From Bacteroidota bacterium (GTDB lineage Bacteria; Bacteroidota; Bacteroidia; Chitinophagales; Chitinophagaceae): a DNA stretch of 64,000 nucleotides. Made by a program: the position numbers and the translations under genes. The notes beneath the pieces were generated by a model that saw only the letters and a list, made by a program, of their open reading frames with translations, was not told the origin of the DNA and did no database searches. The DNA lies in contig JBJORA010000090.1 of NCBI GenBank assembly GCA_046049675.1, positions 16,114-80,113 on the forward strand. The letters are read 5' to 3'. How positions within the stretch are numbered: the first letter of the stretch is position 1; every line of letters starts with the position of its first letter. Below, piece by piece: positions 18,275-58,442 of the stretch.

Positions 18275-18397
18275 ATCGCAAAGTTTACTTTTACGCAATA
18301 AACTATTATTTTTGAGTATGATAACGGTGCCCTTATGCAGCCTAATGAGACGGATCGTGGAACACTTAATTGACTCAATTGGCCACGCTGCTGCATC
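18275..18397 (+). repeat. R2 intergenic repeat copy A (hairpin GCAAAG..CTTTTNGC + TAttTTTG + TATGATAAC + ..ATTGACTCAATT..)
   Basis: Aligns with the copies at 24828, 53031, 58317 and weaker ones at 26411 and 28163. Lies 40 nt upstream of the 18440 gene. Confidence 0.6.
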
Positions 18398-18439
18398 AAT
18401 CAGTATTCTTTGGTGGTATTTTAATAAAACGACACAGCT

Positions 18440-19309
18440 ATGGGAACATGGGGAATAGCCATAAAAGACAATGACGCATTTGCCGACATTTACAGCGAAT
18501 TCTTCGACCAATATAATAAAGGTGGACAACCTGAAATTATTGCCAAGAAAATCATAGACGACAATTGGGAAATTCTTGAAATAGAAGAAGAAAAGAATAG
18601 CTTATGGTTTGCTCTTGCTTTGGCTCAATGGGAGACAAAGTCGCTAGACCCCAAAGTATTATCGACAGTTGAGGATATAATTACATCAGGTGCTGATTTG
18701 AAAATTTGGCTTGATCTTGGAGCAAGTGAACAAGACATTAAAAAACGAAAAATTGCACTTGACAAATTTCTCGAAAAAATCAAGTTAGAAAGACCAAAGG
18801 CTAAACCAAGAAAAAAGGAAAAATTAAAATCGCCAATTTTCGCAACAGGAGACTGTTTAGTTTTTAGATTAACAAATGGAAATTATGGCGGCGCAGTCGT
18901 TTTGGCGACAGACATTAATCCTGAGACAGCATACAATTTGATAGCTACAACAAGACTAAATCAAAGTCATAAACCGACACTTGAGGACTTCGAAAATGCT
19001 GAAGTTCTAATTTGCAATTTCGGTCAATGGCAAGACAGCGTAGCGGTAACTTGGTATATGCCCGACTTATTTTATAAAGACTATGTAGAAATTTACGAGA
19101 ACATTGGAAAAATGTCTGTAGATCTAAAGTACGACACAAAGAATTATGAGGGCAAAGCCTATTTGTTTGAACCTACTTATACGTCAGGCTGGACTATGAA
19201 TACTGTGGCACAAAATCAATTCGAATCTGAAATAGCGAAGTCGAAACCGACAAAGACTATAACGATAAGACAGCTAACTAAAAAAGAGAAATGGTGGAAA
19301 GTATTCTAG
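18440..19309 (+). CDS. DUF4259-like protein
   Basis: N-terminus MGTWGIAIKDNDAFADIYSEFFDQY resembles the DUF4259 signature (recall). Confidence 0.4.
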   Translation: MGTWGIAIKDNDAFADIYSEFFDQYNKGGQPEIIAKKIIDDNWEILEIEEEKNSLWFALALAQWETKSLDPKVLSTVEDIITSGADLKIWLDLGASEQDIKKRKIALDKFLEKIKLERPKAKPRKKEKLKSPIFATGDCLVFRLTNGNYGGAVVLATDINPETAYNLIATTRLNQSHKPTLEDFENAEVLICNFGQWQDSVAVTWYMPDLFYKDYVEIYENIGKMSVDLKYDTKNYEGKAYLFEPTYTSGWTMNTVAQNQFESEIAKSKPTKTITIRQLTKKEKWWKVF

Positions 19310-19540
19310 GACAAAGGCTCTATATCTTAAGCTCCCATAATTGGCTGGCATAGAAACCACATCCAACAATTTTTTGATCTTTAAGAAAAGACACTTTCAA
19401 GTGGCAAACATAAACATTCTGAACCCTAAAGTCCACTATAATTATTATGGCAAGGCATTATTTTACGTAATAAATTATTCTCTTGAGAAGAACAAAATTG
19501 CTAGTATCTATTGTCAGCAGGTGGATCATCCAACTATTGG

Positions 19541-19570
19541 TTGGCGCAATTGGCAGCTCAATTGCGCCAA
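19541..19570 (+). promoter_or_regulatory. perfect 12-bp inverted repeat TTGGCGCAATTG-N6-CAATTGCGCCAA
   Basis: Read directly in the sequence, 180 nt upstream of the giant helicase gene. Candidate operator. Confidence 0.4.
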
Positions 19571-19751
19571 GTACTATTCGCTAGAAATGCATGCAATAGC
19601 TACACTCTCGGTACTACACTTCTGCATTATTAAGCAACGACTAGAATAATTTTTTGGCAGTTAAACAACTCTATAAGACCTGTGCTAATTCAATTTTTAA
19701 AATACATCATGTTTGGAATAAATTTCGCAATAATGACTATTTTAGAGCAGT

Positions 19752-22700
19752 ATGAACTCAATTGCATTCGTTGACACCGAGATTGAGCCAAAAAGCCGAA
19801 AGATTCTTGACATTGGAAGTGTCAAGGACGACGGTAGTTCTTTTCATTCAAATTCCGTTACTGACTTTATAAAGTTTCTTAGCGGCACACAGTTCATTTG
19901 CGGACACAATATATTGTATCATGACTTACAGTACATTCAGAAAGCCGTTTCAGATGCAAATGTAAATTCAGATAACGTCATTGACACTTTGTATCTCTCT
20001 CCTCTTTTGTTTCCAACAAGACCCTATCATGCTTTACTCAAGGACGACAAACTTCAAACAGAAGACTCTAATAATCCGCTTAACGATTCCATAAAAGCCA
20101 AGGATCTTTTCTTTGACGAAGTTTCTAACTTCAACCAATCAGACGAGAAACTAAAAAAGCTTTTCTATTTACTATTATACGACAAAAAGGAGTTCAACGC
20201 CTTTTTTCGTTTCATTGCATATACTTGCAGCGACACAGACACTGAAGATTTTATTCGCAAAACATTTGATTCGGTTATTTGCGAACATGCTAACCTTTCA
20301 AAAATAATTTCGGAGCACCCGATTGAATTAGCTTACTGCTTAGCTCTCATAAATTGCAATAACCGATATTCAATAACACCACCTTGGATTTTAAGAAACT
20401 ATCCCAAAGTTGAATGCTTAATGTTTTTGCTAAGAAACAATCCTTGTATCACTGGTTGTAAGTATTGCGATAAAGCATTTGATATTCACAAAGCACTAAA
20501 GGAAAATTTCGGCTATGATGCTTACAGAACTTATGCAGGAGAGCCACTTCAGGAGAACGCAGTTCAAGCAGCAGTTGACAACAAATCTCTATTAGCAGTA
20601 TTTCCTACTGGTGGTGGCAAGTCAATTACTTTTCAAGTTCCTGCATTGATGGCTGGTGAAAACTCAAAAGGTTTAACAGTGGTGATTTCTCCTTTGCAAT
20701 CGCTAATGAAAGACCAGGTTGACAATCTAGAAAAGATAGGAATCACTACTGCTGTTACAATAAACGGTTTGCTTGACCCCATTGAAAGAGCAAAATCTAT
20801 TGAAAGAGTTCAAGATGGTTCAGCATGTCTCCTTTATATTTCTCCTGAATCTTTGCGATCAAAGACCACTGAAAGAATTCTTTTAGGAAGAAAAATTGTT
20901 CGCTTTGTTATTGACGAAGCACACTGCTTTTCTTCATGGGGCCAAGATTTCAGAGTAGATTATTTATACATCGGCGATTTCATCAAATCAATTCGGGAAA
21001 GTAAAAATCTTGAAGAACAAATTCCAGTTTCATGCTTTACTGCAACTGCAAAGCAAAAAGTCATTGAAGACATTTGTGCATACTTCAAAGAAAAGTTGGG
21101 AATCAAATTGGAAATATTCCCCTCCAAAGCGACAAGAACAAACTTGCAATACAGAGTTTTTGAAAAAGGCAACGATGAAGAAAAGTATAACGCAGTTCGC
21201 GATTTAATTGAAGAGAAAAATTGCCCGACAATTATTTATGTTTCAAGAACCAAACGAGCAAGAACCCTTGCAGAAAGATTAAAGGAAGATGGATTTGATG
21301 CAAGAGCATTTCATGGCAAAATGGAAAGCCAAGAGAAAACAGCGAATCAAGATGCTTTTATTTCTGGAGCGGTTCAAATAATGGTGGCGACCTCTGCTTT
21401 TGGGATGGGCGTTGATAAGAAGGATGTTGGAATGGTCATTCACTATGAAATTTCTGACTCACTCGAAAACTATGTTCAGGAGGCAGGCAGAGCAGGGCGA
21501 GATCAAAACATAAAAGCAGACTGTTATGTTTTGTTTAACGAAGAAGACCTCGGCAAACATTTTATCTTGTTGAATCAAACTAAGATCAATATACATGAGA
21601 TCAAGCAAATTTGGAACGCACTGAAGTACCTTACAAAATTCAAATCGAGTGTTCAAAAATCTGCTTTGGAAATCGCAAGAGCGGCAGGTTGGGACGATAG
21701 CTTGCACGAGATAGAAACAAGAGTTACAACTGCAATTGCTGCATTGGAAGAAGCAGGCTATGTGAAAAGAAAACAAAACATGCCAAGAGTTTTCGCCAAT
21801 AGTATTTTATCAAAGACGGCACAAGAAGCGATTGATAAAATTATGCGTTCGCAAAAATTCAGCGAGGATCAAAAAATGGCTGCAACAAGAATTGTCAAAG
21901 CCCTCTTTTCAAGTAAAAGCAGAAAACAAACAAAATCTGATGAAGCTGAATCAAGAGTTGATTACATCTCTGATAATTTGGGCATTGATATTAAGAATGT
22001 CATAGCAGTAGTTAATCTGTTACGTGACGAAAATATTTTGGCAGATGCAAAAGATTTAACTGCATTCATCAAAAGAGGTGAGAATAAAAATCGTTCACTT
22101 GCAATTGTTCATAGCTATGGCCTAATAGAAAACTTCCTTTGTCCATTGTTTGGCGAACAAGAAAAATCATTCCATATTAAGCAGCTAAACGAACAAGCAG
22201 AAGCCGCTGGATGTAGAGATGTTTCACCAACAAAAATAAAAACGATCATCAATTTTTGGGCGATTAAGAATTGGATAAAGCGACACAACAAAGATTATTC
22301 GAAGAATCAAATTGTTGCAATTAGTTGCCAACCAATAGAAGAACTAAGAAAAAGATTAGAGAAGCGACACATTTTAGCGGAGTTTGTTGTTAACTATTTA
22401 TATAAAAAGAGCAATATAATTCTTGAAGAAGTCGAAGCAGAAAAAGATGAAGTATTAGTAGAATTTTCCGTTCTAGAATTACAAGCGGCATTTGAAAAGC
22501 AACCCCAAGAGTTGTTTGCTTTTAAGGCAAGCATGGAAGACATTGAAGATACCTTGTTTTATCTATCACGAATAGAAGCAATAGGGATTGAAGGCGGCTT
22601 CCTTGTTGTGTACAATAAACTTTCAATTGATAGAATTGAACAGAATAATAGGGTTCAATATAAAGACCAGGATTATCAAGCGCTAAAACAGTATTACGAA

Positions 22701-24578
22701 CATAAGGTTCAGCAGATTCACATCGTTGGCGAGTATGCCAAGAAAATGATTGATGATACCACTGGAGCACTACAATTTGTTGACGACTATTTTCAATTAA
22801 ACTTTCCTTCTTTCTTAACTAAATACTTTAAAGCAAGAGAGTATGAAATAGGAAGAAACATAACGCCACAGAAACACAGGCAACTTTTTGATTCTTTATC
22901 GGAGGTTCAGCGAAACATTATTGACGACAAAGATTCAAGATACATTGTTGTTGCAGCTGGACCAGGAAGCGGCAAGACAAGAGTTCTGGTGCACAAATTA
23001 GCTTCATTGCTTTTGATGGAAGACGTTAAGCATGAGCAATTGCTGATGCTAACCTTTTCTAGAGCAGCAGCAACTGAATTCAAGAAAAGGCTGATTGAAC
23101 TAATAGGCAATGCAGCAAACTTCATCGACATAAAAACCTTTCACTCTTATTGTTTTGACCTCTTGGGCAAGGTTGGAACAATTGACACAGCAGATAGAAT
23201 TATCAAAGCCACGGTAGCGAAAATAAGAAATAACGAGGTTGAGGTGAGCAGAATTACAAAAACAGTTTTGGTGATTGATGAAGCACAGGATATGGACCAC
23301 GAGGAATTTGAGCTGATAAGCGTACTCATGGAAAAGAATGATGAAATGAGAGTAATTGCAGTAGGAGATGATGACCAAAATATTTATGAATGGAGGGGAG
23401 CCGATTCGAAATACTTGGTAAGCTTTATTATAGATAAAAAGGCAACGAAATACGAGCTCATCAAAAATTACAGAAGTAAAAGTAATTTGGTTTCATTTGC
23501 TAACCAATTTGTAAGGACAATTGATGGGCGCCTTAAAGAAATCCCGATTGAAGCACAACAAACTGACAATGGGAAAATTAAGATTGTTCATTACAAAAAT
23601 GGAAACCTCATTGCTCCCCTTATTGACGACATACTTTCAACTGACCTTTCAGGTACAACATGCATCTTGACACACAAGAACGAGGAAGCATTTCAAGTAG
23701 CAGGACTTCTGACCAAATACGGACACCAAGCTAAGTTGATTCAGAGCAACGATAGTTTTAGCTTATATAATCTGATAGAGATACGTTACTTTTTGGATGA
23801 GTTGAGATTAGACGATGATGTATTTATTATTAGCGACGATGTTTGGGAGAGCGCGAAAAGACAATTGATACACAGATACAAAGCAAGTTCAAAGTTTGAA
23901 ATTTGTTACAACCTTATTAGGGATTTTGAAAGCACAAACACCAAAAAGAAATACAAGTCGGACTTTGAAGTTTTCATCCGTGAATCAAAGTTGGAAGATT
24001 TTATAAGCACTAGTGGAGATACAATATTTGTTTCTACAATTCACAAGGCAAAAGGAAGAGAATTTGACAACGTGTTCTTATTGCTTGAAAATTTTGATGC
24101 AAGAGAAGCTGAAAAGAAGCGACAACTGTATGTGGCAATGACAAGGGCAAAGCAAAGGCTGACGATTCATTTGAATGGAAATTATCTTGACAATTTGAAG
24201 ACGGAAGAATTAGAGCGGATTGAAAATAATAGCACATTCCAAGCGCCAAGCGGTTTGGTTTTACACCTTTCGCACAAGGATTTAAAGTTGGGATACTTTG
24301 AGTATGTGCAGAAACGAGTAAATGCATTGACAAGCGGAGATTCACTTAGTATATCTGATGAAGGTTGTAAAAACGAAAAAGGCGAATTAGTATTAAAGTT
24401 CTCAAAAAGATTTCTTGAAAGATTAGTAGTTGCAAAGAAGAGGGGTTATGAGTTGAAAGATGCTAAAGTGAATTTCATTGTCTATTGGAAAAATGAGGAT
24501 AAAGGGATTGAAGTAAAAATTGCCCTTCCAGAATTGCATTTTGAACACGCAAATACAGTAAATGCGCAAGTTGACTAG
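19752..24578 (+). CDS. 1608-aa fusion protein: DnaQ-like 3'-5' exonuclease + RecQ-family helicase + UvrD/PcrA-like SF1 helicase
   Basis: Exo motifs FVDTE...GHNILYHD. RecQ Walker A PTGGGKS, DEAH VIDEAHCFSSWGQDFR, and ATSAFGMGVDKKDVGMVIHYEISDSLENYVQEAGRAGRD. UvrD Walker A AAGPGSGKT, DEAQD, GDDDQNIYEWRGA, VAMTRAK. Confidence 0.8.
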   Translation: MNSIAFVDTEIEPKSRKILDIGSVKDDGSSFHSNSVTDFIKFLSGTQFICGHNILYHDLQYIQKAVSDANVNSDNVIDTLYLSPLLFPTRPYHALLKDDKLQTEDSNNPLNDSIKAKDLFFDEVSNFNQSDEKLKKLFYLLLYDKKEFNAFFRFIAYTCSDTDTEDFIRKTFDSVICEHANLSKIISEHPIELAYCLALINCNNRYSITPPWILRNYPKVECLMFLLRNNPCITGCKYCDKAFDIHKALKENFGYDAYRTYAGEPLQENAVQAAVDNKSLLAVFPTGGGKSITFQVPALMAGENSKGLTVVISPLQSLMKDQVDNLEKIGITTAVTINGLLDPIERAKSIERVQDGSACLLYISPESLRSKTTERILLGRKIVRFVIDEAHCFSSWGQDFRVDYLYIGDFIKSIRESKNLEEQIPVSCFTATAKQKVIEDICAYFKEKLGIKLEIFPSKATRTNLQYRVFEKGNDEEKYNAVRDLIEEKNCPTIIYVSRTKRARTLAERLKEDGFDARAFHGKMESQEKTANQDAFISGAVQIMVATSAFGMGVDKKDVGMVIHYEISDSLENYVQEAGRAGRDQNIKADCYVLFNEEDLGKHFILLNQTKINIHEIKQIWNALKYLTKFKSSVQKSALEIARAAGWDDSLHEIETRVTTAIAALEEAGYVKRKQNMPRVFANSILSKTAQEAIDKIMRSQKFSEDQKMAATRIVKALFSSKSRKQTKSDEAESRVDYISDNLGIDIKNVIAVVNLLRDENILADAKDLTAFIKRGENKNRSLAIVHSYGLIENFLCPLFGEQEKSFHIKQLNEQAEAAGCRDVSPTKIKTIINFWAIKNWIKRHNKDYSKNQIVAISCQPIEELRKRLEKRHILAEFVVNYLYKKSNIILEEVEAEKDEVLVEFSVLELQAAFEKQPQELFAFKASMEDIEDTLFYLSRIEAIGIEGGFLVVYNKLSIDRIEQNNRVQYKDQDYQALKQYYEHKVQQIHIVGEYAKKMIDDTTGALQFVDDYFQLNFPSFLTKYFKAREYEIGRNITPQKHRQLFDSLSEVQRNIIDDKDSRYIVVAAGPGSGKTRVLVHKLASLLLMEDVKHEQLLMLTFSRAAATEFKKRLIELIGNAANFIDIKTFHSYCFDLLGKVGTIDTADRIIKATVAKIRNNEVEVSRITKTVLVIDEAQDMDHEEFELISVLMEKNDEMRVIAVGDDDQNIYEWRGADSKYLVSFIIDKKATKYELIKNYRSKSNLVSFANQFVRTIDGRLKEIPIEAQQTDNGKIKIVHYKNGNLIAPLIDDILSTDLSGTTCILTHKNEEAFQVAGLLTKYGHQAKLIQSNDSFSLYNLIEIRYFLDELRLDDDVFIISDDVWESAKRQLIHRYKASSKFEICYNLIRDFESTNTKKKYKSDFEVFIRESKLEDFISTSGDTIFVSTIHKAKGREFDNVFLLLENFDAREAEKKRQLYVAMTRAKQRLTIHLNGNYLDNLKTEELERIENNSTFQAPSGLVLHLSHKDLKLGYFEYVQKRVNALTSGDSLSISDEGCKNEKGELVLKFSKRFLERLVVAKKRGYELKDAKVNFIVYWKNEDKGIEVKIALPELHFEHANTVNAQVD

Positions 24579-24827
24579 GTTTAATAACTGTACCAGACCT
24601 AGTATGAGTGAACTGGAAATAGCACGAAATAGGCGGCAACCGTGCTCCTATTGGCCTTCGTCACTAACCCACTAAGTTGTTTGCAATATCTGCGGCGGCG
24701 GATTAGATTTAATGCTATCGCATAGGTGTATCACTCGCCAGTAGTGTTGGGTGAGCTGTATGGTGTTTGCAAGTAAGCCATTACAACTACTACGTGGCAT
24801 CTACTTAGTTAACTGCAAAAGCTAAAA

Positions 24828-24947
24828 CAATTATTTTGGCAAAGCCTGCTTTTGCGTAACAATTTATTATTTTTGATGATGATAACAATGCTCGCAGATA
24901 TAAGCTTCTTCGAACACGTGATTGACTCAATTCGCAATGCTAGCCCG
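24828..24947 (+). repeat. R2 intergenic repeat copy B
   Basis: CAATTATTTTGGCAAAGCCTGCTTTTGCG...TTATTATTTTTGATGATGATAAC...GATTGACTCAATT. Confidence 0.6.
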
Positions 24948-25180
24948 TAAAGCAATGTAGGCTGGTCGTAAGCATATCAACAAAGGGCAATGCAAAGTCG
25001 AAACAATTACAACATTGCTAGCAGCGTTATAATTCTAAACTAAGGATTCTTACTTACTTTTGTTTTTGAAAAAAGAAACCACTTCTCACATAGGAGCTGC
25101 GCATATATACTTAATGTGGGCCGCACCTTACCCACACTTTAAGCACAACTACAAATTCAAGAAATTAGATATACAGATAT

Positions 25181-25771
25181 ATGGACATAAAGTATATTGA
25201 GAAGAACTACGAAAGCATGCCCGATAGCGAAATTATTAGAATTGCGACGACAGATGCTCATGGATTGCGACCAGAAGTTTTTGGAATTATTGAGAAAGAA
25301 ATCAAGAAACGAAATCTTAATCCTGACATCTTAAAGGGTGCACTTGCGCAAAACAAGGAATATTCATCTGAGGAAATAGAAGACTATTCAAAACTGTTGA
25401 GAGATTTACCTTGTCCCATTTGTGGCAATACACACGAAAAACTAAATGGGACAGTGTCCTATACAGTGCAAAGTTTTATAGTTTTTACCTCATATGGAAG
25501 TGAGCCAACAATTGCTTGTCCAGACTGTCTCGACAAGAAAAATAATGACGCAATGCTTTCAACGGCTTTACTTGGTTGGTGGGGAATTCCTTCGGGAATT
25601 TTAAAGACGCCACTATATATTTATAGAAACTATAAAGCTAAACAAGAAAACAGAATTGACGCTTCAAATAGTGCCCTGCTTTCGTTTGTACTCGACAACA
25701 TTGGAGAAATCGAAACATACAAAGAAGACAAACAAAAACTTAAAGCAATCATAAAGCCGAAGAAATACTAA
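25181..25771 (+). CDS. hypothetical protein with a zinc-ribbon-like CPICG...CPDC
   Basis: 196 aa. The Cys pairs are visible. Confidence 0.4.
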   Translation: MDIKYIEKNYESMPDSEIIRIATTDAHGLRPEVFGIIEKEIKKRNLNPDILKGALAQNKEYSSEEIEDYSKLLRDLPCPICGNTHEKLNGTVSYTVQSFIVFTSYGSEPTIACPDCLDKKNNDAMLSTALLGWWGIPSGILKTPLYIYRNYKAKQENRIDASNSALLSFVLDNIGEIETYKEDKQKLKAIIKPKKY

Positions 25772-25919: not shown

Positions 25920-26381
25920 TTGAGTACACAGCAAGACATAAGTGATGTTTTTTCGATGCTTCATGATGGAGTAATTGAAAGTTGGACAGGTAGTAAAGAA
26001 AAACTATTACTAAAAATTAGCTGCTTGTACTTAGCAGAACTCATAAACAAAGACTTTGAATACTTTTATGTAGAGATAGCAGAAGTGCAAAAAATTGAAC
26101 TTGATACGTGGATTAATCCAATTGAAGACGGCCCACAAATATTAACAGAACTATCAGATATTTTTAAAGCCGAATTGGAGATACTCTCAGCTGAGAATAA
26201 AGATAGCGGGGTTGTGATAACATGCAATCAACCATTTAGGGAGATAAATTATAGTGGCGGTCATCTTACCTTAAACTGTACATCAGTCAAAGTATTTAAG
26301 CAAGACAGAAATGAACTGACAATTAAGGCATTAAAAGAGCTATGTACACAATATTGGGACAGCTTTAGGAAAAGAATATAG
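25920..26381 (+). CDS. hypothetical protein
   Basis: 153-aa ORF. Confidence 0.35.
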   Translation: MSTQQDISDVFSMLHDGVIESWTGSKEKLLLKISCLYLAELINKDFEYFYVEIAEVQKIELDTWINPIEDGPQILTELSDIFKAELEILSAENKDSGVVITCNQPFREINYSGGHLTLNCTSVKVFKQDRNELTIKALKELCTQYWDSFRKRI

Positions 26382-26552
26382 TTAACCACAAAAGCCACCA
26401 TAGTTATTTTGGCAACGCGTGCGTTTACACAAACTCTATAATCCAGCCCTTCGGCAAAACCAAAAGATATGTCTTTTCACCTATTTTTTGGGCAGTCTAA
26501 AAATATTTACTACTTTTGTTAACCTATTTCGTTAATAATATTTATCTTTTCA

Positions 26553-26885
26553 TTGGAAATAAGTTATAGAAACAAAAAACTTGAAAAGCAATTGACAGAT
26601 CCAAAAGAGATGGTAAAATCCTTTGGTCAGTTGGCTCGTAAGGTAAATCAAAGACTAAAAGATTTAGGTGATGCGGACGATTTATCAATTATGAGAAGTA
26701 TTCCGGCTGCAAGATGCCACGAACTAGTAGGCGATCGCAAAGGTGAATTAGCGGTAGACGTTTCAAGCAACTACCGACTGATTTTTGAGCCAGTCCATGA
26801 TCCAATACCCAAAAAAGATGATGGCGGTTTGAATTGGGAGGAAGTCACCAAAATTCAGATTAATGAAATAGAAGACTACCATTAA
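26553..26885 (+). CDS. higB: type II toxin, HigB-type (RelE/ParE superfamily, plasmid-killer family)
   Basis: C-terminal block ELVGDRKGELAVDVSSNYRLIFEPV...INEIEDYH matches the HigB signature (GDRKG...I.DYH). Confidence 0.65.
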   Translation: MEISYRNKKLEKQLTDPKEMVKSFGQLARKVNQRLKDLGDADDLSIMRSIPAARCHELVGDRKGELAVDVSSNYRLIFEPVHDPIPKKDDGGLNWEEVTKIQINEIEDYH

Positions 26886-26910
26886 AACAGATAGAACTTA
26901 GGTAAACACA

Positions 26911-28002
26911 ATGGCAACAAAATTAGAAATAGCAAAATCGTTACTCTCGCCTCCCGGCGATACTATTCAGGAGCATATTGATTTTATTGGAATGAGCCAA
27001 GCTGAACTTGCAGAAAGAATGGGCAGACCAAAGGAAAAAATCAATGATGTAATTAAAGGAAGAGAACCAATTTCTACTGCAACAGCTTTTCAATTGGAAA
27101 AAGTTTTAGGTATCTCTGCAAGTTTTTGGTTGAATAGAGAGAAGACATACCGTAAAGAGCTCTATGAATTACAACAACAGGAAGAACTAGAAAGGCAAAA
27201 AGGATGGTTGTGTGCATTTCCAATAAATGAGATGCGAAAATATGCATGGATACCTGATACAAAAGAGAAGCATACTTCGGTGGACAATTTATTAAAATTC
27301 TTTAGTGTAGCATCAACTGAAGAATGGGAAAGGATTTATGTGGATGAAGAAGTTTCTGTTGCATTCAAAATCTCACTGGCTCACACCAAAAGCCCTCATG
27401 CTATTTCAGCATGGTTGCGTAAGGGTGAGATACAAGCTAAGGAAATAGACGTTGCGGAATTTGATAAAAAGAAATTCAAAGAAGCTATGGCAGAAATCAA
27501 AGAAGTGGCCTTTTTGATGCCTGACAATTACACAAAACAATTACGCAATATCTGCGCCAAATGTGGCGTCGCGGTTGTATTAACTCAAAACTTGCCAAAA
27601 GCACCAATAAGTGGAGCAACACGTTGGTTTCATAACAAACCAATCATTCAATTATCTGGTCGCTTTAGGACCAATGACCATTTTTGGTTTACTTTTTTCC
27701 ATGAAGCGGCACATATCATTTTGCACGGCAAAAAAGACATCTTTTTGGAAAATGTAGAAGGCACAGAAACAGACCAAGAAAAAGAGGAAGAAGCTAATGC
27801 ATTTGCTGCTAAAATATTGCTGACTGAAAATGAACTACAACAGATTATTGATGCAGCTCCATTGACCGAAAAAATGATTTATGAGTTTGCAAATAAATTC
27901 AGAACACCACCAGGTGTAATTATAGGCAGATTACAACATTTAAAACTCATTCCATTTCATATCGGCAATAGTTTCAGGCGAAAAATTGATTTATTTAGCT
28001 AA
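26911..28002 (+). CDS. XRE-family HTH antitoxin fused to an ImmA/IrrE-type (COG2856) HExxH metallopeptidase domain
   Basis: N-terminal HTH (GMSQAELAERMGRPKEKINDVIKG). C-terminal HEAAHIILH. Immediately downstream of higB. Confidence 0.65.
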   Translation: MATKLEIAKSLLSPPGDTIQEHIDFIGMSQAELAERMGRPKEKINDVIKGREPISTATAFQLEKVLGISASFWLNREKTYRKELYELQQQEELERQKGWLCAFPINEMRKYAWIPDTKEKHTSVDNLLKFFSVASTEEWERIYVDEEVSVAFKISLAHTKSPHAISAWLRKGEIQAKEIDVAEFDKKKFKEAMAEIKEVAFLMPDNYTKQLRNICAKCGVAVVLTQNLPKAPISGATRWFHNKPIIQLSGRFRTNDHFWFTFFHEAAHIILHGKKDIFLENVEGTETDQEKEEEANAFAAKILLTENELQQIIDAAPLTEKMIYEFANKFRTPPGVIIGRLQHLKLIPFHIGNSFRRKIDLFS

Positions 28003-28322
28003 GAATTGTAGAAGTTTATTTCCGCTATTAATTGCACAGTAGAAATTAAAGATGTGCATAAAAGGCAATGACTTTCAGTTGTAGGCTTAGCCGACTAGTT
28101 GTATTGCATAACGGTAATTTCTCCCGAGACTAGCTGCGCAAAATGTAGTGTGCAAATAGCCAAAAACTTTAGCAGATTTTGAAAAATAAATAGTAATACA
28201 TTCGCTACAAATGAAAAGAAAAACGCTTAATTTTGAGTTGGTCCACATCTGATTGATGCCGTTCGAACAGCAGCTGCAGTAAGCATCATTCGCTATACAT
28301 CACTTTAAAAGACACTTCTACT

Positions 28323-28991
28323 ATGACTGACACTTTTTTGACATTTAAGAAGTTTAACGATGTTGAGATTGCAAATGAAATCGTTGAACTATTAAAAGCG
28401 AAACAAATTGACTTTCATATTGACGAAGATTACAAGCAGTTTTCTAACCCTCTTTTGAGCGATAATGCAGTCGACCATAGAGTTTGTCTAAAACTACGAG
28501 CGGAAGATTTTGTTAAAGCCCAAAGTGTTATAGATGAGTATTATAGAGACATTGCTGATTCAATAGGAAAGGATTATTTTTTGTATAAATACACCGATAA
28601 CGACTTATTCGACATTTTAACTAAGCCAGACGAATGGGGCGAACTCAACTGTCAGTTAGCTCAAAAAATACTTGTGGAAAGAGGCCATGATATTAACCCC
28701 GAAACAATTAAACAACATATTGAACAAATAACGACAGAAGATGCAAAACCAGAAGTAGCTGGAAAAATTTATATCTTTTTAGGCTATGTCGTCGCAATAC
28801 TTGGCGGCTTACTTGCCATTATGTATGGCGAACACTTAGTAAGTTCTAAAAAAACCATGCGCGATGGTACACAAGTCTATACTTATAGGGAAGAAGATAG
28901 AAAGCATGGCAAAAGAATTTTTAGAATTGGTATTGTGTTTTTGATTATTGGCTTGATTCTGTTTATTTACATTAAATTAAGGCAGCTTTGA
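28323..28991 (+). CDS. DUF2007-like N-domain protein with C-terminal TM helices
   Basis: N-terminus resembles DUF2007. Two C-terminal hydrophobic helices. Confidence 0.35.
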   Translation: MTDTFLTFKKFNDVEIANEIVELLKAKQIDFHIDEDYKQFSNPLLSDNAVDHRVCLKLRAEDFVKAQSVIDEYYRDIADSIGKDYFLYKYTDNDLFDILTKPDEWGELNCQLAQKILVERGHDINPETIKQHIEQITTEDAKPEVAGKIYIFLGYVVAILGGLLAIMYGEHLVSSKKTMRDGTQVYTYREEDRKHGKRIFRIGIVFLIIGLILFIYIKLRQL

Positions 28992-29130: not shown

Positions 29131-30144
29131 TTAAATGGCATACCACCCACCCATCTCACCAATCCTCTTCGCAATTTTCTTCTTCAATAGCCTCGGTGCA
29201 AGAACTTTCAGTTGTTCGCCAAAGCCGAGCAGCTCGCGTTCTAGCTCAAAGTTATGGACCACGCATATCTTAAAGATCGTGCCGTCTTCGTCTTGCTTGA
29301 GTACTTCTTGGCTAGGGTGTAGTGGTTTGGTTAGCACGTAGGGCGCGTCGCTTTTTCGTATCCAGAATACAATATTTTGTGCGCGGTCTTTTTCTGTTTT
29401 GGTTACCCCAATGGTATCGGCATAGTATTCGTCAAAGGGTTTGCCTTTGTAGGGCACAAACTTTTCTTTTTCGTTTATGGTAAAAGACTCAATGCGGTCT
29501 AGGGCAAGTGTAATGAGTATATCGCCTTTCTTTGGCTTGCAAATTAAGAACCAACGGTTACGATATTCTTTGAGCAGGTAGGGAAAGTATATGCCTTCTG
29601 TACCTTGTTTTGCCTTGAAGGATTTGTACACAATGTTTAGCGTGGTACGATTGGCAATGGCCTGGTACAAGGGATTGATAAAATCTAAACCTTTTAGCAG
29701 TGGGTTGCTTTCAAATTGTACATAGTTGTGTTTAGCGCCTGCAGTTTGTTCTATACTATTTTCAAGCTTGGTAATCATTTCACTCATTTCGGTGAAGTGG
29801 GCAAAACCGCTAAACTGTTTAAGCACTTGCACGATGCCTTTTAGTTTACCAAGATCGCCTTCGTTGAGCTGCGACTTAAAAATGCTATAGTCTTTGTCGT
29901 CGTAAGTATAGTAGCGTTTGTTTACAACAACGATGGGCGCATTATAGCCAAGGGTATCGCTGCGCATCACTTGTATATCTTGCTGTATGGTGCGTTTGGC
30001 AATACCGGTATGTTTGCCTTCAAAGTCGTAGAGCGCATCTGCTACGGCATCTATTAGGTCTTCTAGTGTCCATTTGCGCAATCTATTTTGCAGACACTTA
30101 TCTATGGTTTTATAGCGCAGTAATGCTTGTTTGTTTGTAGCCAT
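29131..30144 (-). CDS. WYL-domain transcriptional regulator (HTH + WYL; BrxR/CapW-like architecture)
   Basis: 337 aa. N-terminal wHTH. Central WYL-like region (LLKEYRNRWFLIC...). This family typically flanks defense systems. Confidence 0.6.
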   Translation of the reverse strand: MATNKQALLRYKTIDKCLQNRLRKWTLEDLIDAVADALYDFEGKHTGIAKRTIQQDIQVMRSDTLGYNAPIVVVNKRYYTYDDKDYSIFKSQLNEGDLGKLKGIVQVLKQFSGFAHFTEMSEMITKLENSIEQTAGAKHNYVQFESNPLLKGLDFINPLYQAIANRTTLNIVYKSFKAKQGTEGIYFPYLLKEYRNRWFLICKPKKGDILITLALDRIESFTINEKEKFVPYKGKPFDEYYADTIGVTKTEKDRAQNIVFWIRKSDAPYVLTKPLHPSQEVLKQDEDGTIFKICVVHNFELERELLGFGEQLKVLAPRLLKKKIAKRIGEMGGWYAI

Positions 30145-44157: not shown

Positions 44158-44178
44158 AAATGCGGCAGCTAAGAGCGA

Positions 44179-44240: not shown

Positions 44241-44278
44241 GGCAAACCTAGAGTGTAACTTCCGAAAACCTCAATACA

Positions 44279-44968
44279 ATGAAAATACTTCTAATATTGC
44301 TTTGCACGTTTACAACTATTCAAAATTGTTTTTGTCAGAAACTTGAAGGAGAGTTTACGAATAGCCGGGATTTATCAATTTACCTTAGGCAAGAATATGT
44401 TGTTTTACATCACAACCCAGAGGTTTGTTGCAATCCAGCAACATGGGATACCGGAACCTACAGAATAGTAAATGATACGTTGAAACTGGCTTTTGGCGAA
44501 ATCAAAAGCAGTATTAGATATAATTTGACCTTCAATAGAAATGGATTTCATACGCGCAATAGAATAAATAAATTAGTTAGAATTAATTTTAAAATGCCAG
44601 ACAGTTATTATGGCAAAGAAAAATATCAATATGACAGTTTAAATTTTGACAAAAGCAACCTCTTTTTTTACGACATAAAGGGACGTAAAGTAGATAGTCT
44701 AACCATTAATCCCTGGTATAACTCAGAAGCATATGAAATAATTGTTCCTAAATCAACAAATAGAATTAGGGTCAACTTTGGGAAAGGAATTAAAAACGAA
44801 TATGTTTTACCAAAAGGCTTTAATGAATTTAATATTACAGTTAATTTAAATCGAACAGGCACATACGGCAGACAGCGCTATACTAGGGAATTCGCGATAG
44901 TGCAAACGAATGACACGCTATCAATGAAAGACATTTATGGTTTGCAAGGATACGCAAAAATTAAATGA
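44279..44968 (+). CDS. secreted hypothetical protein (cassette gene)
   Basis: Signal peptide. Confidence 0.45.
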   Translation: MKILLILLCTFTTIQNCFCQKLEGEFTNSRDLSIYLRQEYVVLHHNPEVCCNPATWDTGTYRIVNDTLKLAFGEIKSSIRYNLTFNRNGFHTRNRINKLVRINFKMPDSYYGKEKYQYDSLNFDKSNLFFYDIKGRKVDSLTINPWYNSEAYEIIVPKSTNRIRVNFGKGIKNEYVLPKGFNEFNITVNLNRTGTYGRQRYTREFAIVQTNDTLSMKDIYGLQGYAKIK

Positions 44969-44986
44969 GCTGGGCCTGCACACAAC

Positions 44987-45050
44987 TTGCCTAAAGTGGC
45001 TGGCTAACCCAAAATATCCAACGCTTCACAGCTATCTTTGTAAGGTCGCC
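44987..45050 (+). repeat. R1 intergenic repeat copy 2
   Basis: TTGCCTAAAGTGGCTGGCTAACCC...GCTTCACAGCTATCTTTGTAAGG. Confidence 0.6.
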
Positions 45051-45072
45051 AACCACTAGGCGCAATTCACGA

Positions 45073-45994: not shown

Positions 45995-46168
45995 TGTGCA
46001 AAAGCAGCTGGCAAACGCCCGTTTTTTCCGCAGTGCATAGCTGCACGCATTAAGCACCAAGCGCAGTAGGCAGTCATAAAATAAAAGCAAAAAATAATTA
46101 ACGGCGCTTACCAAAAGCAGCATGCTACCACGCTCAATCTAAGGCCTCATAACTATCTTTGTAAAGCC
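45995..46168 (+). repeat. R1 repeat copy 3, split by a ~125-bp insertion carrying the hairpin GTGCA-TAGC-TGCAC
   Basis: Upstream half TTGTGCAAAAGCAGCTGGCAAACGCCC at 45995. Core CATAACTATCTTTGTAAAGCC at 46148. Confidence 0.45.
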
Positions 46169-46219
46169 ACTAGACATTGTGGGCAATTTTGGTAGAGCAT
46201 GCGCAAATGACAACACAAA

Positions 46220-49231: not shown

Positions 49232-50041
49232 GTGAACTGCATTAGTCAGTATCATTTGCAAGTAGAGATTCAAAATCTTTGGAGAATGAAGCAATTCTAT
49301 GAAACCTACAATGGATTGCCAAAACTCTCACCACTGGTGAGAGAAATTAGTTGGACAAATAATTTACTAATCCTATCCAGGACAAAGACTTTAGAAGAAA
49401 AGGAGTTCTACTTAAAGATTTGTAAGCATGAGAATTATAGCAAACGAGAATTGGACAGGCAAATAACTTCTAGTCTGTACGAAAGAACGATGTTGGGAGA
49501 CGTTAACATTTCCAATTTAACCAGAGAAATTTATCCTAACGCGGCAAATGCTTTTAAGGACAGCTATTTATTTGACTTCTTAAACCTGCCTGAACAACAC
49601 AATGAAAAGGATTTACAAAGAGGATTAATCGCGCAAATGAAGGACTTTATTCTTGAATTAGGCAAGGACTTCATATTTATTGCTGAGGAATTTAAAGTAG
49701 AGGTTGGCAATAGTGATTTCTATATTGACTTACTATTTTATCATAGAGGTTTACAATGTCTGGTTGCTTTTGAACTAAAAACAACCAAATTCAAACCTGA
49801 GCACTTAGGACAAATAAATTTTTATTTGGAAGCATTGGACCGTGATGTAAAGAAAAATAATGAAAATCCGAGCATTGGAATTTTACTTTGCAAGGATAAA
49901 GACAATGAAGTTGTTGAATATGCAATGAGCAGAAACATGTCTCCGACAATGGTAGCAGAGTACAAAACCCAACTCCCAGACAAAAAGCTATTGCAAGCAA
50001 GGTTACACGAAATATTCGAAGCGGGTGAAAGCAAAGCATAG
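49232..50041 (+). pseudogene. DUF1016/YhcG-like PD-(D/E)XK nuclease family gene, 5'-truncated (~100 aa missing), GTG-initiated ORF
   Basis: Begins mid-family at NLWRMKQFYETY. The C-terminus retains the PD-(D/E)XK-like core (DLLFYH...ELK). Confidence 0.45.
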
Positions 50042-52541: not shown

Positions 52542-53030
52542 ATGTATAAAGTTTAGTGTTGAGTCTGTGTTTACATTAATCGACCACCTATTGTAAAAGT
52601 ACTTGCTTAAATTTATTTCTACCAAGGTTTATAGCTTATCCTGATGATACCGGCATTGATACCACCGAAATTGCCCTTTCGTAAAATGCTGTAATGCGTG
52701 TTGAGTAAAGTACAATTATTCATATGGATATAGGCGCTGGAACCATATGCGGATAATACGTTTTAAATGCAAGTTTTTCACAGGGTAAAATTAGAAGTAT
52801 TGCATACTGTAAAGAGTGGCAATAAGTAAACGGCGTGCTTTAGTAAGTGTGCCACACTGTGTGTGGGAAGCAAGGCATATACAATGAAGTTTGTGTGTGC
52901 AGTACGTTTTGATGGTACTTTAGTAGGACTATCGTTTTAGAAGGCCTATGTAGGAGGACTTGGTGTTAGTATAGTGTGCTAAGTACGAAGGCTTGGTATT
53001 TTTGCTGAAGCAATAAAAGAATAATTTACA

Positions 53031-53128
53031 TCGCAAAGCACGGTTTTGTGCTAGAAATTATTATTTTTGAATATGATAACAAGGCCCGAAAGCAATCCGC
53101 AGATGTGTATCGTCAATCACCTAATCTT
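53031..53128 (+). repeat. R2 intergenic repeat copy C
   Basis: CATCGCAAAGCACGGTTTTGTGCTAGAAATTATTATTTTTGAATATGATAAC... Confidence 0.6.
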
Positions 53129-53180
53129 TAGGCGTAAATAAAAAAATCTAGCATGAACATTCACAAATTATAGAATTCAG

Positions 53181-53750
53181 ATGATGAGATTATTTTTAAT
53201 AGTATTCATAAGTATAATTTTAATTTTTCCTCAAAGCATCTATGCCAAGAAAAAAAAGAAGCGAGTTTCTACATTAGAAAGTTTACGCTATGACAGCAAA
53301 ACTGACAAAACAACTTATTTAGTAGTTCCGTTTGGAAAGATTAACTTAAAGGGTAATTGGACAGAAGTAAAAGATAAAAATCCCCCCTATGGGAAACTTG
53401 TAAAAAACGCTCAAGGAGTAGAAATACTATTGGACTTATTAGATTGTAGTTTTTCCTTCAATGATACTGACAAAGTAAAGAATTATCAATTTGTTGAACG
53501 CTATTATAACTGGGAAAAAGCATACTTCGAAAAAAGTCCTGAGCTAAAAACAGAAGTAATTGAAAGAGATTCAATAAACAATTTTATGATTTACCGAATC
53601 AATGGAAAAATTAAAAATGAAGACTACGATACCTATGTCTTTGTAACTGAAAAAGACTGTAATGTAATGACTTTATTGATTAGTAATTACGTCAACATTT
53701 CTCGTGAAGAAAAGATAAGGCTCTTTAAAGAGATTTACAATACAGAATAG
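53181..53750 (+). CDS. secreted hypothetical protein
   Basis: Signal peptide. Confidence 0.45.
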   Translation: MMRLFLIVFISIILIFPQSIYAKKKKKRVSTLESLRYDSKTDKTTYLVVPFGKINLKGNWTEVKDKNPPYGKLVKNAQGVEILLDLLDCSFSFNDTDKVKNYQFVERYYNWEKAYFEKSPELKTEVIERDSINNFMIYRINGKIKNEDYDTYVFVTEKDCNVMTLLISNYVNISREEKIRLFKEIYNTE

Positions 53751-53869
53751 CCTGCGCTCATCACGCGCTTTACGAAATTGTTGTCTTCAATTATTTTTTT
53801 AGCTACAGCAACTTTGTAAAGCACTAGTAGCTTGCCCTAATAAAAGAAAATTCAAAAAATAATCCTCAA

Positions 53870-54508: not shown

Positions 54509-54598
54509 AGTGAGTAATTACTAAGAGTGACGTATTAATAAGTGCTAAGGTGAAAATCAAGCAAATATTTAGATTTATCAAAATACAGTATATAGCAG

Positions 54599-54660
54599 CT
54601 TGCCAAAAATAGCTGGCAAACCTGCAATTTCTAGATCTTCACAAGTACCTTCGACAAGCC
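54599..54660 (+). repeat. R1 repeat copy 5
   Basis: CTTGCCAAAAATAGCTGGCAAACC...CTTCACAAGTACCTTCGACAAGCC. Confidence 0.5.
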
Positions 54661-54706
54661 GCCAAACGTTAGTGGCAATTACGCGAGACCCACAAGAATA
54701 AAGACA

Positions 54707-55174
54707 ATGGAAATAAATTATATCAAAGGCGATGCTACTAATCCAATTGGAGAAGGAAATAAAATAATTGTGCATATTTGTAATGATATTGGTGGCTGGG
54801 GAAAAGGATTTGTTATGGCAATTTCTAAACGCTGGAAACAACCTGAACATCAATATAGAGAATGGTTTAAAGCAAAAGATAATTTTAGCCTTGGACAAGT
54901 TCAATTTGTGCTAGTAGAAGAAACACTTTGGGTTGCTAACTTGATTGGACAGCACAAGATTAATAAAGACGAAAATGGAAACGCACCAATTCGTTATGAA
55001 GCAATTTTTCAAGGACTTGAACAAGTAGCTCAATTTGCTTTAGAAAGAGACGCGACTATTCATATGCCAAGAATCGGTTGTGGACTTGCAGGTGGCTCGT
55101 GGGAGAATATAGAGCCTTTAATAAACTCGACATTAATGTCAAAAAACATTCAAGTAACTGTTTACGACTTTTAA
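54707..55174 (+). CDS. TARG1(C6orf130)/DarG-type macrodomain protein (ADP-ribosyl hydrolase)
   Basis: IKGDATNP...IVHICNDIGGWGKGFVMAISKRW and MPRIGCGLAGGSWENIEPLI...IQVTVYDF align block-by-block with human TARG1 (recall). Confidence 0.6.
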   Translation: MEINYIKGDATNPIGEGNKIIVHICNDIGGWGKGFVMAISKRWKQPEHQYREWFKAKDNFSLGQVQFVLVEETLWVANLIGQHKINKDENGNAPIRYEAIFQGLEQVAQFALERDATIHMPRIGCGLAGGSWENIEPLINSTLMSKNIQVTVYDF

Positions 55175-55175
55175 T

Positions 55176-55532: not shown

Positions 55533-55567
55533 AAATATAAAAAACAAACAATAGCCACCACCAACGC

Positions 55568-55626
55568 TTTGCTAAAGATAGCTAGCTAACCCGCATTATC
55601 CAGCGCTTCGCAGCTACCTTTGACAG
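55568..55626 (+). repeat. R1 repeat copy 6
   Basis: TTTGCTAAAGATAGCTAGCTAACCCGCATTATCCAGCGCTTCGCAGCTACCTTTGACAG. Confidence 0.6.
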
Positions 55627-55646
55627 TAGTCTAGCACTAGCAGTTA

Positions 55647-57040: not shown

Positions 57041-57189
57041 GCAATACTTAGCACCACACAACAGCGTTTTTACAAAATCGTGACCTGAATTGTAAATCAA
57101 AAATAATTATTCTTGCTTACATTTGTTTGTAAATAAAACAAGTGCTTCTTGCATAACAACTACGTCACTTCCGCGCTAACGGTAATTTT

Positions 57190-57696
57190 ATGACACTACC
57201 TTATATTGACATATATGTTTTGACAAGCAATCGCGAAAGACGAACACTTGAGAAATTTTTAGATGAATATACAGATAGAGAATCCATTGAAGACATGCAT
57301 GATAGCGAAATCAATATGCTACCTAAAGATAGATCTTATCTGGAAGTAAATAGCGAAGACTACATATGGATTAAGGCGGAAACGCTTACCAATTGCATTG
57401 ATATTGGACTTTCTAATCCAAGCAATTGCTTTACACTTTATTTAAGATCAAAACACAGAGAAATTAACTTAGTCATTCTAAGCTTTACACAAGATGGAAA
57501 ATTAATAGTTGGGCTTTCAATCTTTGAATATATAGATGCAGAACAAACAATAGACAATTACAAATTTGCAAAAGAACTAAAAGACGAGATGTATAGAAAT
57601 TATAATGGCAGTTTGGCATACTTTGGACTTGAGGCTTCTCCTGCACACACAGAAGAGGAATTCAAAAAGCAGACGCTGACTTTCATTAATAACTAG
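57190..57696 (+). CDS. hypothetical protein
   Basis: 168-aa ORF. Confidence 0.4.
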   Translation: MTLPYIDIYVLTSNRERRTLEKFLDEYTDRESIEDMHDSEINMLPKDRSYLEVNSEDYIWIKAETLTNCIDIGLSNPSNCFTLYLRSKHREINLVILSFTQDGKLIVGLSIFEYIDAEQTIDNYKFAKELKDEMYRNYNGSLAYFGLEASPAHTEEEFKKQTLTFINN

Positions 57697-57700
57697 CACT

Positions 57701-58195
57701 TTGGCAATGGGCATAATTAAAGTGGCAAAAGACGACAAGTCTATACATAGCATTTGCATTGCTTCAATTAAGCGAAGCACAATGAAACCCCATGACTTCA
57801 AATGGACTAATTTTTATGAATCTAATTCTGACTTTCAATATTCAGGATTGCAACTTGACTTCATAGAAGATGAACTAATGATTTGCTCAACAATTATTGA
57901 TACAGACAATTACAGTATTCTAACAACAAGGCGCCTACTAACGAAACTTGAAGGACAATTAAGCATAGAGTATATTCAAGGGGCAATTGATAAAATGTAC
58001 GGAGACTTTAAAGGCTATCAAACCAAGGGTTTTACGTTTGGAAAAGTACAGGTTGAAAACGGCAATGAAATAAAATACTTTATTGAAACTGGAAAAGCTT
58101 CAATGATAATGATACGCGCAGTAAGAACCGTAATTACAATAACGCAAATGTCAATTAATAAAGTTGACGATGATACAAGAAGTGAAAACAAATAA
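57701..58195 (+). CDS. hypothetical protein
   Basis: 164-aa ORF. Confidence 0.4.
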   Translation: MAMGIIKVAKDDKSIHSICIASIKRSTMKPHDFKWTNFYESNSDFQYSGLQLDFIEDELMICSTIIDTDNYSILTTRRLLTKLEGQLSIEYIQGAIDKMYGDFKGYQTKGFTFGKVQVENGNEIKYFIETGKASMIMIRAVRTVITITQMSINKVDDDTRSENK

Positions 58196-58316
58196 AATGA
58201 ACTGCCTTGTTACGACGTGCCTTATTGCTTGCCATGTGTTTTGTTATAGTATTTTTTGTCTTGTTCGATGTTGCGAATCTGCTGCTACGATAGGTAGTTG
58301 GCCTCGCTTCCACTAC

Positions 58317-58442
58317 AATTATTTTAGCAAAGTGTGCTTTTGTGCCAGAAATTATTACTTTTGAATATATTAGCAGCGCCTGCAGCTTCTCAGCAACAAC
58401 GCATCTTTCAACAATGGCTTAGTTCAATTAGCATCGCAACCC
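58317..58442 (+). repeat. R2 intergenic repeat copy D
   Basis: CAATTATTTTAGCAAAGTGTGCTTTTGTGCCAGAAATTATTACTTTTGAATATATTAGC... Confidence 0.6.

Follow-up and report, generated by a model that had tools for sequence, protein, structure and literature searches.

A candidate promoter-leader module repeated upstream of mobile gene cassettes in a Chitinophagaceae contig

The stretch of DNA analyzed here (the window) comprises 64,000 nucleotides (nt) of contig JBJORA010000090.1 of a Bacteroidota bacterium of the family Chitinophagaceae (assembly GCA_046049675.1). It has a G+C content of 31-43%, encodes one protein with a type IX secretion sorting domain and contains many boxes of the type TAnnTTTG. 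The left part of the window consists of housekeeping genes. Two runs of small, unrelated and mostly uncharacterized genes on the + strand are located at ~15-29 kb and 53-60.5 kb, and between the two lie the gene of a WYL regulator, an RNA-repair operon and another series of + strand genes. In this study, we analyzed R2, a dispersed intergenic repeat that is found upstream of genes in both runs and to which the first-pass annotation of the sequence had drawn attention. Our favored interpretation, which we hold with moderate confidence and which is based on sequence analysis, is that R2 is a lineage-specific promoter-plus-leader module located at the 5' boundary of mobile cassettes in two arrays.

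The R2 repeat family

The R2 family comprises five full copies of ~170 nt and two half copies, all of which are located on the + strand in intergenic regions upstream of genes that are unrelated to each other (Table 1). The copies are also referred to by the start positions used in the first-pass annotation, in which 19417 corresponds to the copy at 19424-19584, and 28163 to the half copy at 28228-28296. That these sequences constitute a genuine repeat family, as the annotation had proposed, is confirmed by four types of evidence. First, a repeat search of the window returned an ungapped 71-nt family with members at positions 18266, 24827, 53021 and 58315 that share 62-75% identity with the reference copy. 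Second, the 23-nt core TTATTATTTTTGANTATGATAAC occurs three times in the window when at most one mismatch is permitted, against 0.02 occurrences expected. Third, R2 pairs are the only significant dispersed repeats detected by a sensitive self-BLAST of the window (E-values of 5e-4 to 3e-7). Finally, a profile derived from the five full copies gave an aligned length of 118-169 nt per copy. The four sequences that had been listed as strong copies (18275, 24828, 53031 and 58317) are all members of the ungapped 71-nt family, but the list was incomplete because the fifth full copy, 19424-19584, had been overlooked. The two sequences listed as weak copies (26411 and 28163) are indeed related to R2, although each is only a half copy, the first containing the 5' part and the second the box plus Block II.

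The conservation of R2 is organized in blocks. Block I, which contains the GCAAAG dyad, the TAnnTTTG box and the sequence ATGATAAC, shows a pairwise identity of 70-73%, the highest of all segments. It is followed by a variable stretch of ~27 nt (42% identity) and by Block II, a segment of ~60 nt with 61-63% pairwise identity, whose 3' end is ATTC.CT.G. The pairwise identity of the sequences flanking R2 is 36-45%. One of the indels among the copies is 9 nt long. The conservation of both Block I and Block II demonstrates that the similarity involves more than an AT-rich promoter box; in the alignment it extends blockwise over ~170 nt. The half copies behave as separable modules, and those at 26379-26426 and 28228-28296 have retained opposite parts of R2. 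In the latter, the box TAATTTTG (28228-28235) is fused to Block II, and the ~45 nt in between have been deleted. The near-palindrome ATTGACTCAAT that had been noticed in two copies is present at positions 18369 and 24921. The location of R2 upstream of + strand genes of unrelated function was also described correctly; the proteins encoded downstream of the copies are not paralogues.

Outside the window, no further R2 copy was found in the adjoining contig sequences (from -7 kb to +7.5 kb). A search of GTDB representative genomes and JGI metagenome contigs with a strict 21-base pattern, which copies of ~80% similarity would escape, yielded only chance matches and matches in coding sequences. 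A looser pattern matched only phage coding sequence in IMG/VR, and BLAST searches against plasmids and phages returned nothing.

Table 1. Positions of R2 copies, attC-type sites, defense-type genes and related repeats. R2 elements are given in 5' to 3' order.
Feature	Position	Strand	Elements	Context or remarks
R2 copy 1	18266-18413	+	GCAAAG 18278-18283; -7 box TATTTTTG 18307-18314; ATGATAAC 18318-18325; Block II 18354-18413, containing ATTGACTCAAT at 18369	Upstream of DUF4259-type cassette gene 18440-19309 (289 aa)
R2 copy 2	19424-19584	+	Degenerate box TATTCTCTTG; Block II 19525-19584	Upstream of 1608-aa helicase gene 19752-24578
R2 copy 3	24806-24965	+	GCAAAG 24839-24844; -7 box 24868-24875; ATGATAAC 24879-24886; Block II 24906-24965	Upstream of 25181-25771 (196-aa gene)
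R2 half copy	26379-26426	+	5' part only	79% identical to 24806-24853; followed by unrelated sequence
R2 half copy	28228-28296	+	Without GCAAAG dyad	Upstream of 28323-28991
R2 copy	53009-53126	+	GCAAAG 53033-53038; -7 box 53062-53069; ATGATAAC 53073-53080; Block II only ~17 nt, then truncated	Heads the second array, between divergent genes; upstream of 53181-53750
R2 copy	58301-58462	+	GCAAAG 58327-58332; -7 box TACTTTTG 58356-58363; ATATTAGC in place of ATG; Block II 58403-58462	Upstream of 58525-59124
attC-type site (R1)	54585-54677	+		Best match in the window, 23.5 bits, E 2e-4
attC-type site (R1)	53754-53840	+		Second array; covariance model E 0.03
Weak attC-type site (R1)	44165-44287	+		Weak match to covariance model
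Related R1 copies	44969-45072, 46100-46195, 55562-55646			By alignment
Defense-type gene	19752-24578			1608-aa fusion of DpdF/PsyrT-like DEAD helicase and GajB-like UvrD helicase
Defense-type genes	26553-28002			HigB-like protein and PD-Lambda-2_B-like HTH-M78 protein (HTH-M78: 26911-28002)
Defense-type gene	49232-50041			PDC-S02 (YhcG nuclease) protein
Defense-type gene	54707-55174			DarG-like macro domain protein
~185-nt repeat regions of locus L024	7036-7434, 7864-7972, 13230-13531, 13908-14304, 16198-16303			Upstream of five cassette genes

R2 is located in arrays of mobile cassettes

The DUF4259-type gene located downstream of the first R2 copy has ~1000 homologues, and among the matches listed, which share 66-87% identity with it, are proteins from Flavobacterium, Pedobacter, Chitinophagaceae, Chryseobacterium, Kapabacteria and Paludibacter. 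The 196-aa gene behind the third copy is similarly widespread, and the homologues of both genes are 60-87% identical across several Bacteroidota classes. Such a level of conservation across classes indicates that these genes have spread horizontally. In other genomes, their homologues are present in runs of small + strand genes that are separated by repeats of 125-135 nt having the form GCCCTATAAC-AGCACCTACCC-AAAA-GGCGGGG...CCCGCC-CTTCG-GGGTAG-CTGC-AAAACG/TTATAGGGC (a slash marks the junction). An alignment of 14 of these sites revealed a stem of 17 pairs with compensatory changes in 14 of them, which, together with the AAC...GTT cores, identifies the repeats as attC-type cassette recombination sites. 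This attC-type family, TATAAC-AGCACC...CTTCG...GCTGCAAAACG/TTAT, is common to distant Bacteroidota (loci L024, L027, L034, L041-L047 and L050), and attC-type sites border the homologues of both the DUF4259-type gene and the 196-aa gene in L024, L027, L041-L047 and L050.

We built a covariance model from the 14 Bacteroidota sites (alignment A6), which is distinct from the attC model of IntegronFinder. It detected additional sites in the loci of other genomes as well as three of the R1 repeats of the window, another family recorded in the first-pass annotation. Judged by these matches, the R1 repeats are attC-type recombination sites, and their presence implies that the window contains integron-like cassette arrays. 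The R1 sites carry a TAyCTTTG box that is aligned with the conserved CTTCG of the attC-type family, and they may double as promoters. Several of the genes among the cassettes are of the defense type (Table 1).

No integrase or recombinase gene (intI or XerD-family) was identified by Pfam among ~60 open reading frames (ORFs) of the window, five ORFs (4223-4468, 6584-7174, 7621-8730, 8737-9357 and 9389-10465) being unscanned, and none is listed among the genes of the flanking sequences, which extend 7 kb and 7.5 kb from the two ends of the window. Arrays without an integrase in view correspond to clusters of attC sites lacking an integrase (CALIN) in the terms of PMC4889954.

Promoter signals in R2

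The sequence TAnnTTTG is the -7 box recognized by Bacteroidota sigma-A, which is located at positions -12 to -5 in Flavobacterium psychrophilum (PMC9723704). A box with the sequence TATTTTTG, TACTTTTG or TAATTTTG is present in five of the six R2 copies that cover this region, and it is degenerate in the copy at 19424-19584. The density of TAnnTTTG in the window is 4.4 times higher in intergenic than in coding sequences, and R2 boxes account for 5 of its 22 intergenic occurrences on the + strand. All the R2 copies are co-oriented with the genes downstream of them. One of them, 53009-53126, is located between divergent genes, a position incompatible with R2 being a 3' element of the gene before it. 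The proposal that R2 is a shared promoter-leader module fits well with the presence of the box, the uniform orientation and the location of this divergent copy.

Canonical promoters, with TTG spacings of 21 and 20 nt, are found in the window upstream of an S-adenosylmethionine (SAM) riboswitch and of the HigB gene, respectively. The SAM riboswitch (12187-12295, 78 bits) is located upstream of the O-acetylhomoserine sulfhydrylase and homoserine dehydrogenase genes (methionine operon); it is preceded by TACCTTTG at position 12160, with the TTG 21 nt further upstream, and provides an internal example of a canonical promoter. The HigB gene has its own canonical promoter behind the half copy 26379-26426, with TACTTTTG at position 26511 and the TTG 20 nt upstream of it.

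R2 at the cassette boundary

R2 is absent upstream of the homologous cassettes in all 12 of the 12 loci from other genomes that we examined. Hence, R2 belongs to the lineage studied here and not to the cassettes, and the possibility that R2 travels together with its cassette was rejected. The homology of the DUF4259 cassette with other genomes begins at ATTTTAA..ACGACACAG..ATG, which is 9-10 nt past the last conserved base of R2. The sequence preceding this point is ACG/TTATAGGGC in the other genomes and the end of Block II, ATTC/TTTGGTGGT, in the window, showing that R2 ends at the 5' boundary of the DUF4259 cassette. Only a degenerate start, GCTCTATATC, is recognizable of the attC site that this cassette would itself have downstream. 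For the 196-aa cassette, nucleotide homology to other genomes is restricted to the coding sequence, and the homologues of a 222-aa gene (at most 52% identity) are too distant to mark a second cassette junction.

Some features of R2 bear on the possibility that it constitutes a cassette without an ORF: its right end abuts the start of the DUF4259 cassette, and the half copies are split at the would-be left junction; a Block II hairpin is present only in the copy at 19424-19584, and the junction sequences of R2 are degenerate. One of the loci from other genomes, L024, contains an unrelated repeat of its own of ~185 nt, which is located upstream of five cassette genes and has complementary ends, AACATCCGT...ACGGATGTT. 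This repeat takes the place that R2 has in the window and is its lineage-specific counterpart.

Interpretation of R2

According to the promoter-leader interpretation, the sigma-A -7 box of Block I would direct transcription into the downstream cassette gene or genes. Based on the position of the box in flavobacteria (-12 to -5), transcription is predicted to start at or next to ATGATAAC. In other genomes, only ~30 nt separate the attC-type site from the start codon of the cassette gene, a distance too short to accommodate a promoter belonging to the cassette. Since the cassettes elsewhere lie close to attC and are not preceded by R2, R2 would here provide the cassettes with a signal for expression that they lack themselves. 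The R2 copies would have multiplied inside the arrays through duplication or recombination, perhaps in the form of a short promoter cassette without an ORF, and Block II, which ends where the next cassette begins, may be a remnant or the recognition part of a junction.

It should be noted that several observations weigh against this interpretation. None of the R2 boxes is preceded by a canonical TTG at a distance of 17-21 nt; the spacing is 13 nt in three copies, and the TTG is absent from the others. The 5' untranslated regions predicted for R2 (87-305 nt) are long compared with the median of 24 nt in F. psychrophilum (PMC9723704), and the gene at 25181 has a second TAnnTTTG box, at position 25055, that is nearer than the box of R2 copy 3. 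Moreover, promoter function leaves the conservation of Block II unaccounted for. No recombinase gene is present within the contig stretch examined, from 7 kb before the window to 7.5 kb behind it. The homology between the 5' part of R2 and the 3' end of attC consists of a short match, in which MAFFT sets the R2 sequence ...TTATTTTGGCAAAGCC beside TACCTTTGCAAAGCC of R1; this likeness is statistically unsupported, neither the hidden Markov model (HMM) nor the covariance model scans favor it, and we regard it as a lead only. Finally, R2 was found nowhere else in the collections searched, so that only 5-7 sequences, all from a single contig, can be compared.

On the simplest reading, R2 would be the Bacteroidota counterpart of two types of elements described before. 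Internal promoters borne by cassettes, and promoter cassettes that lack an ORF, have been documented for integron arrays, including those of Vibrio and Treponema (PMC8618304). Like these, R2 is a short, non-coding and repeatable unit that is oriented with the cassettes of attC-bounded arrays, and its predicted activity would provide a promoter for downstream cassettes lacking their own. R2 differs from them in that it has no demonstrable attC site and no clean G/TT junction at its left boundary, that its promoter is of the Bacteroidota TAnnTTTG type, and that no integron integrase is in view. The second type is found in the rAID-1 clusters of Bacteroidales, whose repetitive intergenic sequences have been described as reminiscent of integrons (bioRxiv 10.1101/471110). 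In both cases, Bacteroidota genomes have gathered small, unrelated, horizontally acquired genes into arrays of uniform orientation, with repeats in the intergenic regions. However, rAID-1 clusters, which we compared by their description, are defined by an adjacent gene for a XerD-family recombinase and by immunity genes, neither of which was found in the stretch examined. R2 also bears some resemblance to the Pc promoter and attI site of integrons, which combine a promoter directed toward the array with a junction at which the cassettes begin; the copy at 53009-53126 indeed heads an array. Unlike Pc and attI, several R2 copies are located inside the arrays, and no intI gene adjoins them.

Promoterless mobile cassettes depend on an outside signal for their expression. 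If our interpretation is correct, a Bacteroidota lineage meets this need by copying one promoter module of the phylum-specific TAnnTTTG type in front of them, including cassettes of the defense type. This would aid the annotation of cassette arrays in Bacteroidota, for which the integron literature is thin, and the prediction of which cassettes are expressed. R2 does not open a new mechanism, and the family is confined, within the reach of our searches, to one uncultured lineage. Two by-products of the analysis, the well-supported Bacteroidota attC-type family and the structured stretch described below (z -6.0), may be of more worth than R2 itself.

Alternative explanations

A possible but unlikely alternative is that R2 is the regulated promoter of a small regulon, in which a nearby dimeric factor, such as the WYL/WCX protein (29131-30144) or the HTH-M78 protein, binds to Block I and/or the dyad of Block II and thereby co-regulates the defense-type cassettes. 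WYL regulators often control defense or repair genes, which counts in favor of this possibility. In addition, the Block I dyad (GCAAAG-N5-CTTTTGC) overlaps the -33 region, where a -33 element is missing, and the register of the imperfect dyad of Block II, TTGAC.CAATTG-N6-CAATTG.GTCAA, is specific, with 67% of cells paired against 17-43% in slid registers. Several of the downstream genes are also defense-like (the DpdF/GajB-like helicase, with the DarG-like and PD-Lambda-2-like genes nearby). On the other hand, the dyads are poorly preserved. Only copy 2 has a perfect palindrome in Block II, in which 12 bp at 19541-19552 pair with 19559-19570 (TTGGCGCAATTG-GCAGCT-CAATTGCGCCAA, z -5.2); this palindrome does not fold in the other four copies, whose corresponding register retains 4-7 of the 12 Watson-Crick pairs (at most 9 if G-T pairs are included). 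The Block I dyad pairs equally well in a shifted register, the copy at 53009-53126 lacks most of Block II, and the half copy at 28228-28296 lacks the Block I dyad. Furthermore, the motif ATTGACTCAATTG, searched for in the window with at most one mismatch, is confined to R2 and is absent both upstream of the WYL regulator gene and from the RNA-repair operon; a regulon that reaches either of these was rejected on this ground.

The first-pass annotation had also proposed that R2 might be a recombination junction. This view holds insofar as the R2 copies are located at boundaries in attC-flanked arrays, and the end of R2 abuts the start of the DUF4259-type cassette. A stronger version, that R2 itself is the recombination site of a cassette-moving enzyme, being either an attI-like platform or a variant of attC whose central region is long, appears improbable to us. 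Consistent with it, R2 takes the place that attC occupies in other genomes, and the repeat that takes the same position in L024 is clearly attC-like. The sequence ATGATAAC-RR-TGCCC resembles the attC 5' end TATAAC-AG-CACC, and the end of Block II resembles the attC 3' end; with an alignment score of 2 bits this likeness is not significant, and it serves as a lead only. Copy 3 contains a local hairpin at 24808-24860, in which GTTAAC-TGCAAAAGC pairs with GCTTTTGCG-TAAC (z -2.3). However, such local hairpins are specific to single copies. Pairing of the 5' flank with the 3' end, measured as duplex energy, remains at shuffle level in every copy (z -1.6 to +0.5), whole R2 spacers fold no better than shuffled sequences, neither the attC covariance model nor the end HMMs match R2, and no recombinase gene is in view. 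The negative outcomes for end pairing, the attC model and the end HMMs led us to reject R2 as a long attC site. Known attC-bounded arrays have in common with the surroundings of R2 the AAC...GTT core, imperfect palindromes with compensatory changes and cassettes that are shared by distant genomes, but R2, which neither folds nor scores as attC, adjoins such sites or lies between them.

It also seems improbable that R2 is, or recently was, a promoter combined with a leaderless small ORF of ~25-46 aa with a hydrophobic tail, in which case a micro-protein or leader peptide would have been duplicated along with the promoter. Three copies have an ATG 4 nt past the -7 box, where transcription is predicted to start, and leaderless mRNAs do exist in flavobacteria, where they represent ~5.5% of the mRNAs (PMC9723704). 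In all five copies, one frame stays open across Block II, and its predicted peptides resemble each other (MIT...IVEHLIDSIG.AAASISIL). This frame has the best BLOSUM62 score (0.99, against 0.34-0.81 for the other frames) and the fewest stops, and one of the indels has a length of 9 nt. Although the peptide is convincing by eye, it failed both tests applied: the differences at codon positions 1, 2 and 3 number 92, 76 and 85, without an excess at the third position, and the BLOSUM62 advantage is not significant in column shuffles (p ~0.12). In addition, the ATG is missing in three of the six aligned copies (19424-19584, 28228-28296 and 58301-58462), the stops are located at different places, the nucleotide homology extends beyond them, and a six-frame search of the window for another such peptide found none. 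R2 shows no coding signal in these tests.

A combined scheme, in which R2 is a new kind of expression-and-capture platform for Bacteroidota cassettes, is in our view highly doubtful. In it, a promoter would be coupled with a recognition site in duplex DNA (Block II, up to the cassette junction), and a recombinase other than a classical IntI that acts on folded attC would insert incoming cassettes right behind the promoter; a leaderless micro-ORF might be translated as well. Even less probable is that R2 is a miniature non-autonomous element resembling miniature inverted-repeat transposable elements (MITEs) that entered several intergenic regions by insertion. R2 is dispersed, measures ~170 nt, has rather sharp ends and shows 60-80% identity among its copies, but it has neither terminal inverted repeats nor target-site duplications, its orientation relative to the genes is strictly uniform, its half copies are split internally, and no relative is present in the public collections searched. 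An invertible promoter was rejected together with the MITE, as the copies share no flanking inverted repeats.

Lastly, the suggestion that the 5' leader RNA encoded by R2 is structured (as a riboswitch-like element or an attenuator), or that R2 forms a DNA cruciform, is already largely refuted and scarcely credible. It was prompted by apparent compensatory changes in the hairpin GCAAAG...CTTTTGC, and the short complementary A/T-rich runs on either side of GCAAAG and the perfect 12-bp palindrome of copy 2 would agree with it. However, the compensatory changes did not stand up to scrutiny. The proposed helix shows a single double-sided change in the R2 alignment, which occurs in a poorly aligned copy and is equaled in 238 of 500 shuffles, and its register can be slid by +2 and pairs equally well because A-runs face T-runs beside GCAAAG. 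The folds of this hairpin in the six copies (-0.6 to -6.6 kcal/mol) involve different pairs in each copy and are matched by shuffled sequences. A 23-bp extended dyad in the copy at 53009-53126 is not shared by the other copies (52% of cells paired against 39-46% in slid registers). The RNAalifold consensus structure of the whole element contains zero pairs, two of the R2 leaders fold more poorly than shuffled sequences (z +1.9 and +2.2), and Rfam 15 contains no match to R2, either at the gathering threshold or at E-values up to 10. No covariation was detected in any of the three helices tested explicitly, among them the Block II dyad, which forms a real hairpin only in copy 2, and none of the tested helices surpasses shuffles.

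The region between the two arrays

The RNA-repair operon (31454-38121) encodes an SPFH/Band 7 protein, a T4 Rnl1-like ligase, a Hen1 methyltransferase, a Pnkp ligase domain, a Pnkp kinase-phosphatase and an RlaP nucleotidyltransferase. It is adjoined by the divergent gene of the WYL/WCX regulator, on the - strand, and followed by a Gp49/HTH toxin-antitoxin-like pair at 38298-38994. Within the 1.3-kb spacer between the regulator gene and the operon (30145-31453), the stretch 30240-30640 has no match in Rfam; it folds far better than shuffled sequences (z -6.0) and contains a long imperfect hairpin at ~30395-30580. Judging from this predicted fold and its location, the stretch may correspond to a non-coding RNA linked to the repair system.

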